DNA of 63,431 bases, filler included, from Candidatus Woesearchaeota archaeon (GTDB taxonomy: Archaea > Nanobdellota > Nanobdellia > Woesearchaeales > GCA-2687795): assembly GCA_030753365.1 (NCBI GenBank). It is 4 parts of 4 records of this genome, joined end to end, with 100 filler letters (N's around TTAATTAATTAA, not from the genome) between each part and the next. Parts side by side here need not be neighbours in the genome. Positions count along the whole stretch, not along the records: positions 1 to 24,829 come from JASMCJ010000020.1; 3 more parts are not named here. One strand, given 5' to 3'. Numbering within the stretch: position 1 is the first letter of the stretch; each line of letters starts with the position of its first letter. The position numbers and the translations under genes were made by a program. Shown here piece after piece: positions 1,044-15,366 of this stretch. The notes under the pieces were generated by a model that did no database searches, was not told where the DNA came from, and was given only the letters and a program-made list of their open reading frames with translations.

Positions 1044-1316
1044 ATGTATAATTATGAGATTAAGCCCTCTTTACAAAAAATTCTTAAAAAACTGTCAAAA
1101 AAAGACAGAAAAAGGTATGAAATAATCATAAAAAAGATTAAGGAAATCATTAACCATCCAAATCCACACAATTATAAAAATCTAAAACATGATCTAAAGG
1201 AATTCAAAAGAGTGCATATTGATTCTCACTTTGTGTTAACATTTAAGGTTGATAAGGACAAGAACTCTATTCTATTTGAAGATTTTGATCATCATGATAA
1301 AATAAATTCTATATAA
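1044..1316 (+). CDS. RelE/StbE-family toxin (archaeal type)
   Basis: Basic ~90-aa protein with YKNLKHDLKEFKRVHIDSHFVLTF and FDHHDKI; ATG at 1044 coupled to the upstream ORF. Confidence 0.8.
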   Translation: MYNYEIKPSLQKILKKLSKKDRKRYEIIIKKIKEIINHPNPHNYKNLKHDLKEFKRVHIDSHFVLTFKVDKDKNSILFEDFDHHDKINSI

Positions 1317-1351
1317 TAATCTTACGAACGGCTATCCATAAGATCGAACTC

Positions 1352-2674
1352 TCAAACCTCCACCTTCTCCCCATTCCCTAACAAATGCACATTCTTCTTA
1401 GGATTGTAGCCCATCTCAACAGCAAGCTCCTGCAAAGCACTTCTCATCTCAATTCCACCATGCGCAGGAACAAGATGTTTAGGCTTAACCAAATGAATAA
1501 AATCTCTAAGGTCTTCTTTAGCGCAATGCCCGCTTACATGAATATCCTTAAAAATCCTAACACCTAAATCTTTCAAGTCTCTCTCCAACACACGACGATT
1601 TTCTTCATTTGTAGGCGTTGGTATAACCCTGCATGAAAATATAACATGATCCTCTTTCCTAAACTTAAAAATGTCACTATTAGCCATCTTAGACAATGTT
1701 GATTTAGGCTCGCCCTGATGCCCTGTAACCACTAAAAGATACTTCTCACTCCCTTTCTCTTCAATTTTTTTCAATCTCTTCTTAATCTTACTGCCATATT
1801 TCACAATTTCAACTTCTTTAGAAAAATTCACAAGCCCAATATTTTCACCAGCCTCAACATACTTAGCAAGACTTCTTCCTAAAAACACAATCTTTCTGTT
1901 AAGCTTCTTCCCAATCTCGATGATACTCTTCAATCTGGCAAGATGAGACGCAAACGTTGTAACAATAACAGCCTTTCCAACACTGTCAACACCTAACAAA
2001 ACATCTTTAAGCATCTGCTTTGCTACAGACTCTGAAGGCATCTTGCTCTCAGAAGAAGAATATGTAGAATCAACTATCGCAGCCAACACACCTTCCTTAC
2101 CAAGTTCCTTCATTCTCTTAAAATCCGGCTTCTTTCCAAGCACAGGAAACCTGTCAAACTTAAAATCGTTAGCATACAACACTTTCCCATTTTTTGTATG
2201 CACAACCGCCATCACAGTTTGAGGAGTTGAGTGCGTCATATTAACAAACTCAACCTTAATATCCTTAGAAATTCTATAACTAGAACCAGCATTAAGCACA
2301 ATAATCTTATTATTAATCTTTATTTCCTCATCTCTAAGTATGGCCTTTATAACCTCTGCAGTATAAGGACTGCAAATAATAGGCACACCAAACTTATTAG
2401 CCAGATAAGGTATGGCACCACAATGGTCAAGATGCGCATGCGTAACAATTATAGCTTTTACATTAATATCCTTAAGCACAGAAATATCAGGCACTGCCCC
2501 AACCTTCATCAGTTCATTGGCATTAATATTAACAATATCTTCATCTTCTGTATATTTAATGTAACTATCCAAATGAATCCCTAAATCAAACAGCACTGCT
2601 TCATTCCCAACTTCAAGGGCTGTACAATTCTTTCCCACTTCATCATATCCGCCTACTGCATATATTTTTACCAT
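1352..2674 (-). CDS. rnj: Ribonuclease J (metallo-beta-lactamase/beta-CASP)
   Basis: GGYDEVGKN, THAHLDHCG, HVSGH and PAHG motifs. Confidence 0.92.
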   Translation of the reverse strand: MVKIYAVGGYDEVGKNCTALEVGNEAVLFDLGIHLDSYIKYTEDEDIVNINANELMKVGAVPDISVLKDINVKAIIVTHAHLDHCGAIPYLANKFGVPIICSPYTAEVIKAILRDEEIKINNKIIVLNAGSSYRISKDIKVEFVNMTHSTPQTVMAVVHTKNGKVLYANDFKFDRFPVLGKKPDFKRMKELGKEGVLAAIVDSTYSSSESKMPSESVAKQMLKDVLLGVDSVGKAVIVTTFASHLARLKSIIEIGKKLNRKIVFLGRSLAKYVEAGENIGLVNFSKEVEIVKYGSKIKKRLKKIEEKGSEKYLLVVTGHQGEPKSTLSKMANSDIFKFRKEDHVIFSCRVIPTPTNEENRRVLERDLKDLGVRIFKDIHVSGHCAKEDLRDFIHLVKPKHLVPAHGGIEMRSALQELAVEMGYNPKKNVHLLGNGEKVEV

Positions 2675-13003: not shown

Positions 13004-13151
13004 AGCCCCATAGTGTAGTGGTCAATCATTTCGGATTTTGGTAATGGAAATCAAGCAAAGGTTTATTTTCCATTGAAAACGTCCGAGGACGGCAGTTCGA
13101 ATAGCTTTAAGTCATAATAAGATTTATCGCAAGAAAGTCTGCCTGGGGCTA
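13004..13151 (+). tRNA. tRNA-Gln(UUG) with two introns: 13042-13080 (position 37/38) and 13102-13137 (T-loop, ~59/60)
   Basis: Acceptor stem AGCCCCA/TGGGGCT, anticodon stem TCGGA/TCCGA, T stem GGCAG/CTGCC; removing both introns gives a 73-nt cloverleaf. Confidence 0.9.
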
Positions 13152-14535: not shown

Positions 14536-14630
14536 CTAATTTTTTCCGAAGAAAAAATTAGACAGCCTATTTCAAGCGAAGCGAAGAAATAGTCTCAATT
14601 AAGAACTCAAACAAAAAACGAAGTTTTTTG
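14536..14630. repeat. Three tandem hairpins with GAA-containing loops
   Basis: CTAATTTTTTC-CGAA-GAAAAAATTAG; CTATTTC-aaGCGAAGCgaa-GAAATAG; CAAAAAAC-GAA-GTTTTTTG. Confidence 0.8.
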
Positions 14631-14747
14631 CCTCAGTAGCTCAGCTAGTAGAGCGGCAGTAACTAACAAGAAAGTATGCCGAACCTCGTAGAATCTGAAA
14701 AGATTTAAGACAGCTGCAGGTCAAGGGTGCGACTCCCTTCTGAGGCT
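14630..14747 (+). tRNA. tRNA-Thr(CGU) with two introns: 14660-14683 (30/31) and 14691-14711 (37/38)
   Basis: Acceptor stem GCCTCAG/CTGAGGC; spliced anticodon arm GCAGC-CT-CGT-AA-GCTGC; 73-nt mature length; BHB-like motifs. Confidence 0.88.
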
Positions 14748-14847: not shown

Positions 14848-15124
14848 ATTTTTCTCTAATTATTAGTTAACATATTGAGTTTAAAATAGGATAAGAACAA
14901 TTACAAACAAATTTAGATTATAAATAAAAACAAAAAGAATCAGCTTATTTCTGCTTTCTTCTTCTCTTCTCTTTCTTCATTCTCTTTCTCTGCCATTTCC
15001 ATCTCATCTGGCCTTTCTTTTTCCATCGTCTTGAGCTTCGTTTCACTTTATTTTTCTTCACTCAGTTCATTGAGCTAGTTAACCTCCGTTGGTTTAATCT
15101 AATTTTGAATGCGTAAACAAAAAA

Positions 15125-15267
15125 TGCCCCCGCCGGGATTCGAACCCGAGTCCCCGCCTCGAAAAGGCAGAATGATTGTTCCCGCAGGGAACCCATAAAC
15201 TGGGTTTCCACTGGACCGGACTACACTACACTTGCCAAATCTCAAGTAATCCTCAAGATTCTGGAGC
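15125..15267 (-). tRNA. tRNA-Glu(UUC) with two introns: 15231-15262 (acceptor stem, 5/6) and 15179-15214 (D-loop, after U20)
   Basis: Spliced sequence GCTCCTGTAGTGTAGTCCGGTCAATCATTCTGCCTTTTCGAGGCGGGGACTCGGGTTCGAATCCCGGCGGGGGCA (75 nt) folds as an archaeal tRNA-Glu. Confidence 0.88.
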
Positions 15268-15366
15268 AGTAATAAATCCCAAAGGGCAATATATTGGATA
15301 TATCAGGGTATTTATAAAGCTTCGCATACAAAAGCTTTTTATATCTTCTATCTTCCCATAAATTCC

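Follow-up and report, generated by a model that had tools for sequence, protein, structure and literature searches.

A tRNA-Glu(UUC) gene with a position 5/6 acceptor-stem intron whose splicing motif is predicted to be completed by the 5' leader

A tRNA-Glu(UUC) gene on the minus strand of the window (the whole stretch of DNA analysed, 63,431 nt with filler, from a Candidatus Woesearchaeota archaeon, assembly GCA_030753365.1) is interrupted by one intron in the acceptor stem, between nucleotides 5 and 6, and by a second in the D-loop. We hold it to be highly probable that the 5/6 intron is cut by EndA at a motif completed by the 5' leader, that splicing comes before RNase P, and that a copy of exon 1 found upstream is most likely the original 5' end of the gene. 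The locus lies on contig C20 of an assembly of 0.90 Mb (36% GC, 94.5% complete), and the gene, with both of its introns, is real and most likely functional (Table 1).

Table 1. Layout of the tRNA-Glu(UUC) gene; positions count along the window
Feature	Position	Strand	Basis or remark
TATA box (TTTATAAA)	15311..15318	-	top consensus match within 70 nt upstream; flanks kept in G001; putative promoter role
Upstream copy of exon 1 (GCCCT), at predicted transcript start	15283..15287	-	complementary to acceptor nt 72-68; also in G001
Predicted 5' leader, 20 nt	15268..15287	-	equal length in G001; start placed by promoter spacing
Leader strand of BHB outer helix (-7..-2), pairs with nt 7-12	15269..15274	-	compensatory change in G001
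Exon 1 (tRNA nt 1-5)	15263..15267	-	sequence
Intron 1, 32 nt, position 5/6, strict BHB	15231..15262	-	23-nt counterpart in G001
Exon 2 (nt 6-20)	15215..15230	-	sequence
Intron 2, 36 nt, 20/20a in D-loop, relaxed motif without stacked outer helix	15179..15214	-	absent from G001
Exon 3 (nt 20a-73)	15125..15178	-	anticodon UUC 15163-15161, discriminator A73, no encoded CCA
T-run immediately 3' of the gene, likely terminator	15119..15124	-	sequence; putative function

Once both introns are taken out, ARAGORN reports a 75-nt tRNA-Glu(TTC); it makes no call on the genomic form or after removal of intron 2 alone. Rfam at its gathering score also overlooks the gene (26.5 bits against a cut-off of 29), as the first-pass annotation had expected of standard tRNA finders. 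According to the available text of PMC8450103, tRNAscan-SE 2.0 extends candidates by 60 nt to catch introns near their ends, and it may detect this gene. The second, 36-nt intron described in that annotation is indeed present in the D-loop, and its central helix at 20/20a forms four of four pairs; a placement at 20a/20b was rejected, with just one of four. The gene is neither split, with its pieces on separate transcription units, nor permuted, with its 3' half upstream of its 5' half: it occupies one contiguous locus with one TATA box, and its exons stand in normal order.

At position 5/6, a 4-bp central helix and two 3-nt bulges on opposite strands lie between an outer helix of 6 bp and an inner helix of 10 bp, the strict form of the BHB motif, and the corresponding motif of a same-genus relative, G001, has the same central helix length and bulges with flanking helices of 7 and 6 bp. 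Most of this arrangement had been proposed at first pass, and we found the central helix TGCT/GGCA (four of four pairs, one being G-U), the bulges CCA and AGT and the 10-bp inner stem where they had been placed. Cutting past the second base of each bulge excises 32 nt and restores seven of seven acceptor pairs, again as proposed, and with intron 2 also removed a canonical tRNA results. The pairing of leader ATTAC (15273-15269) with tRNA nucleotides 7-11 also held, but the helix reaches 6 bp, the leader is longer than had been thought, and the copy of exon 1 had been overlooked.

We compared this motif with chance expectation using dinucleotide shuffles (20,000) of the 100 nt that precede T8, a strict BHB being one with both outer helices of at least 2 bp. 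For the source genome, 234 shuffles restored the stem and the central helix, 4 gave a strict BHB and none gave one with both helices of at least 5 bp; for G001 the respective numbers, again out of 20,000, were 559, 19 and 0. Under a nearest-neighbour model, G001 has the exact BHB register as its minimum-energy fold; in the source genome that register is 2.3 kcal/mol less stable than a slipped one (-15.3 vs -17.6). The energy of the leader-exon duplex is unexceptional by itself, 19 of 106 intact genes reaching -7 kcal/mol. That the locus is a pseudogene or an assembly artefact, its motif a chance fold, seems to us scarcely credible given the shuffles, the conservation of the motif with compensatory changes in G001, and the presence of the identical sequence in metagenome contig L040 and in contigs of runs X12, X14, X15 and X1 (some possibly source DNA), even though the assembly is incomplete and another Glu(UUC) gene could be unassembled. 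The region is present in 20 DNA runs from marine, seawater and vent samples (11 possibly the source of the assembly). Among the pieces listed for four DNA runs at 80% likeness, no variant letters fall in the leader or intron 1. No RNA run was listed as containing the stretch, and three metatranscriptome runs gave no records on it, which has no bearing on expression.

Among the roughly 30 tRNA genes recovered from the genome, a partial set of which the majority have introns, this gene is the sole Glu(UUC) gene and the sole one with an interrupted 5' acceptor strand. The other Glu gene, on contig C10, has the anticodon CUC and an intact acceptor strand; a CUC anticodon cannot read GAA under standard wobble rules, and in 521 long ORFs GAA occurs 10,576 times against 5,535 for GAG.

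G001 shares this gene and the gene order around it, with ~74% DNA identity in the neighbouring genes; its intron at 5/6, of 23 nt, differs in sequence, and it has no D-loop intron. The leader had been suggested at first pass to be under pairing constraint, and leader/exon covariation, looked for in this one available relative, was found: leader position -4 and nucleotide 9 form U-A in the source genome and C-G in G001, a two-sided change. Three pairs differ on one side, with the source genome given first: A-U and G-U at leader -3/nucleotide 8, U-G and C-G at nucleotide 3/intron, and G-U and A-U at the first inner pair. No change within the motif breaks a pair; as this comparison rests on two sequences from close kin, it lends support and is not a statistical test. 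The mature tRNAs differ at five bases, two of which make up a compensatory T-stem pair. By eye, the D-loop introns of two tRNA-Glu genes from other families (L004 and L051) are very similar to intron 2. Since these genes carry like introns while the same-genus G001 has none, the comparison suggests that intron 2 was lost in G001 or moved between genes.

Folding predictions point to a role for the leader as a whole. With the native leader, the strict BHB has a predicted probability of 0.041 in the source genome, low in absolute terms, and 0.239 in G001; shuffling the leader gives medians of 0.0005 and 0.0007, and the native value was matched by 1 of 60 shuffled leaders in the source genome and 4 of 60 in G001. 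In silico, a transcript lacking the leader has exon 1 bound to the 3' acceptor strand (P ~0.99), its central helix falling to 0.00; with a leader of 5 nt or less, exon 1 still occupies that strand (P >0.9) and the central helix reaches at most 0.06. Because the 5' leader completes the EndA motif, splicing would precede RNase P trimming, and the proposal at first pass that splicing comes before 5' end maturation is favoured both by the geometry and by the leaderless fold. Within the leader, GGGAT (15274-15280, minus strand) is kept in the source genome and G001 and may pair with D-loop nucleotides 15-17a (15218-15222) or T-arm nucleotides 59-63 (15135-15139). Folding favours neither partner, and pairing with the D-loop would come at the expense of intron 2's central helix.

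The TATA box lies 51 nt from nucleotide 1 in the source genome and 52 or 49 nt in G001. As a reference we used 67 intact genes of relatives, 34 of them with a good TATA match; in these 34 the median distance is 33 nt, with 29 falling at 28-41 nt and 3 at 47-56 nt. The exon 1 copy and the first T of the TATA box are 31 nt apart (32 in G001), and the copy lies 20 nt ahead of the actual exon 1. In the available text of PMC3491384, Nanoarchaeum box A is located 26 nt upstream of the start, and together with the promoter spacing this places the probable transcript start at or near G15287. A strict upstream copy of exon 1 precedes 4 of the 67 intact genes; this stricter test was adopted because a lax one, which scored runs with G-U pairs allowed, was uninformative, runs of 5 being common in intact genes. 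In G001 a perfect 10-nt direct repeat spans both copies of exon 1, and in the source genome the copies have diverged. The upstream copy is most likely the gene's former 5' end, an insertion or duplication having brought in a new exon 1 together with its leader strand.

The usual promoter distance of the copy would also fit a gene in which G15287 is the true nucleotide 1 of a near-leaderless tRNA and the entire 52 nt up to nucleotide 6 form one intron at 5/6. Such a splice restores seven of seven acceptor pairs, its 4-bp central helix is perfect in both genomes, the motif in G001 qualifies formally as a strict BHB (3 + 3 bp), and the resulting acceptor strand occurs in intact relatives. However, in the source genome the inner helix would have 0 bp and the outer 3 bp, at least four transcribed bases would be required upstream of G15287, the predicted probability in G001 is ~1e-15, and the covarying inner BHB would serve no purpose. 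We therefore regard a 52-nt intron as very unlikely. A nested two-step intron between the copies was rejected, with at most two of four central pairs at each of seven junctions in either genome.

With the 32-nt intron and the leader-completed motif as the preferred reading, there remains the part played by the copy. In the predicted fold it takes the 3' acceptor strand through five pairs (P 0.93-0.99), freeing exon 1. The copy might then be a selected decoy, required to keep exon 1 off the 3' strand and delaying RNase P while splicing proceeds as above; the two readings overlap and are not mutually exclusive, and we take the decoy to be a serious possibility that falls somewhat short of an even chance. 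In its favour, predicted pairing of exon 1 to the 3' strand is 0.00 with the copy and 0.47 (G001) or 0.04 (source genome) without it, the copy is kept though the two genomes differ in the bases right behind it, and strict copies are infrequent upstream of intact genes, as given above. However, replacing the copy in silico moved the strict-BHB probability from 0.041 to 0.066 in the source genome and from 0.239 to 0.152 in G001, a modest drop, and the copy alone may matter little for BHB formation. Moreover, the promoter region just upstream is conserved as well as the copy is, and the tRNA-Phe genes considered below mostly have two or three matching bases there, which pair with the D-loop too. 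Because in-silico removal of the copy barely altered BHB formation, the evidence favours a relic of duplication over a required helper. A two-dimensional model of the post-splicing RNA still favours the copy over exon 1 (P 0.99 in the source genome, 0.41-0.84 in G001); since the copy stays paired there, tertiary folding or RNase P binding would have to drive the final switch.

How widespread is this design? A 23-base pattern returned five matches from a genome collection, one true orthologue with the sequence of G001 and four unrelated bacterial stretches, and six from a metagenome collection, one identical to G001, one identical to the window and four unrelated. A Glu-type pattern with a purine at apparent position 4, which would miss other kinds of interruption, matched 15 times, in 14 of the 401 same-order genomes searched: two interrupted genes (source genome and G001), nine intact tRNAs and four coding stretches. 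Because interrupted matches came from just the source genome and G001, while intact Glu- or Asp-type starts occur in 137 of 151 genomes, the 5/6 intron looks confined to the source genus among the genomes searched; the two distinct sequences that carry it are closely related.

Searching 251 genomes of the phylum with a second pattern yielded 54 matches, spread over 49 genomes, and in eight of these matches an AT-rich stretch replaces the acceptor strand. The 401-, 151- and 251-genome tallies include the unpublished genomes G121, G132 and G209, on which nothing else here depends. Seven of the eight were examined, one from an unpublished genome being left out, and each proved to be a tRNA-Phe gene whose acceptor stem holds an intron, at 3/4 in one gene and at 4/5 in six (L128, L129, L151-L155; two needed relaxed filters). 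In five of the six 4/5 introns no pair stacks directly onto the 3' bulge. For the five solved genes, the leader pairs with nucleotides 5-18 (D-arm) at -12.6 to -17.2 kcal/mol, against a minimum of -12.2 among 106 intact controls; their TATA distance is 41-51 nt, and the leader begins with GG or GGG at 31-32 nt. These G runs are no proof of relic origin because they also pair with the D-loop. Judged by eye, one of the remaining two fits the leader design and the other does not. With these seven genes in the phylum and a 3/4 intron already in print, the description at first pass of acceptor-stem introns as very rare was overstated.

In this genome we found one EndA, a 200-aa protein with one N-terminal and one catalytic domain, whose nearest counterparts are the alpha subunit of Nanoarchaeum and the subunit of the Methanocaldococcus homotetramer; as a single subunit was found, this suggests the alpha4 type. 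RtcB, RNase P RNA, Pop5, Rpp21 and Rpp30 are encoded as well; Rpp29 was looked for in the genome and not found. Neighbouring genes are those of the divergent TldD and PmbA peptidases and, downstream, a short basic ORF. No homing endonuclease gene lies in or beside the intron or leader: the neighbours are TldD, PmbA, L34e, an EMC3-like gene and two short ORFs, basic or Cys-containing, that lack a confident family.

Other features of the genome came to light alongside this gene. The ORF directly after the tRNA-Glu gene (14945-15061, minus strand) encodes 38 very basic residues, has no Pfam match and is 92% identical in G001; a like start follows tRNA-Glu in L058, and many unrelated contigs match it. 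The product resembles ribosomal protein L41e. On the plus strand, the gene at 13004-13151 resembles tRNA-Gln(UUG), its anticodon loop and its T-loop each being interrupted by an intron; neither ARAGORN at default settings nor Rfam reports it. ARAGORN labels 14630-14747 as Leu(TAA) with one intron; read by eye, this gene is closer to Thr(CGU), having a U discriminator and a pair of introns around the anticodon. On contig C61 (~1170-1470, plus strand) a tRNA-His gene has its 5' part repeated upstream and its 3' part repeated downstream, and these copies may be scars of integration or reflect an assembly repeat. Many T-loop introns, in different tRNAs and on many contigs of the genome, have related ends, consistent with one intron family spread within the genome. 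Near the end of contig C20, 23671-24542 contains internal repeats of ~280 nt at 82-87% identity.

On the preferred reading, in which EndA cuts at a leader-completed motif, processing would run as follows. Transcription would start from G15287 or nearby, as promoter spacing indicates, and the leader would pair with nucleotides 7-12, locking nucleotides -1 to 3 in the central helix of the BHB, a predicted fold that agrees with the complementarity and covariation. The exon 1 copy would meanwhile hold acceptor nucleotides 68-72. EndA would then cut and RtcB would ligate, both genes being present and their activity presumed. Finally, the D-stem would form, the 20/20a intron would leave, the acceptor stem would refold and RNase P would take off the 20-nt leader.

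EndA-spliced BHB introns are a known class, and the 5/6 intron is one of them; as far as checked, its position and leader design are an uncatalogued variant that recurs in related archaea. A literature search, for which "5/6" is unsearchable as a term and whose scope lay outside the primary catalogues, turned up no 5/6 intron and no upstream exon 1 copy in print. The acceptor stem itself is a known intron site in the available text of PMC12397907 and PMC3978253. An Asgard preprint (10.64898/2026.10.13.758758) mentions, in its main text, a few acceptor-stem sequences with details in a supplement, which may list 5/6. In the accessible part of Yoshihisa 2014 (PMC4090602), citing Sugahara et al. 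2008, the extreme position of non-canonical archaeal tRNA introns is 3/4, in certain Thermoproteales. That intron, as described, is likewise short, protein-spliced, BHB-marked and set in the 5' acceptor strand, and by geometry its motif should also use leader bases; the gene described here differs in its 5/6 position, its Woesearchaeota-type genome with a single alpha-type EndA subunit, and its 20-nt leader with an exon 1 copy.

Intron 2 has a counterpart in Methanopyrus kandleri, whose tRNA-Glu(UUC), in the available text of Kaneta et al. 2018 (PMC5829648), has a D-loop intron with an HBh' motif: the tRNA, the D-arm location and the relaxed motif are the same, whereas the EndA is of another type and that text describes no acceptor-stem intron. 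Split and permuted tRNAs of Nanoarchaeum equitans and Thermofilum pendens, as far as PMC3218864 and PMC3978253 present them, resemble the present gene in that a leader outside the mature tRNA builds the BHB, splicing comes ahead of end trimming and an odd promoter distance marks the gene. Unlike these, our gene is contiguous and in normal order, and its leader would be left to RNase P and not removed by EndA.

Genes of this design are missed by ARAGORN and Rfam, which may partly explain why DPANN tRNA sets are incomplete, as the available text of PMC5829648 describes them. A 170-nt substrate would suit a direct test of the order of EndA and RNase P. This locus keeps an apparent footprint of intron gain, with an old 5' end at normal promoter distance and, in G001, the 10-nt direct repeat. 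We tentatively suggest, while leaning against it being correct in full, that near-leaderless archaeal tRNA genes gain acceptor-stem introns by a self-contained insertion that supplies a new exon 1 and its pairing strand, the old 5' end becoming the start of the leader and a decoy that blocks RNase P until EndA has cut. If true, introns would be gained by a general route that also builds a checkpoint on processing order into the RNA, and it would recur in the Glu and Phe tRNAs of the phylum.
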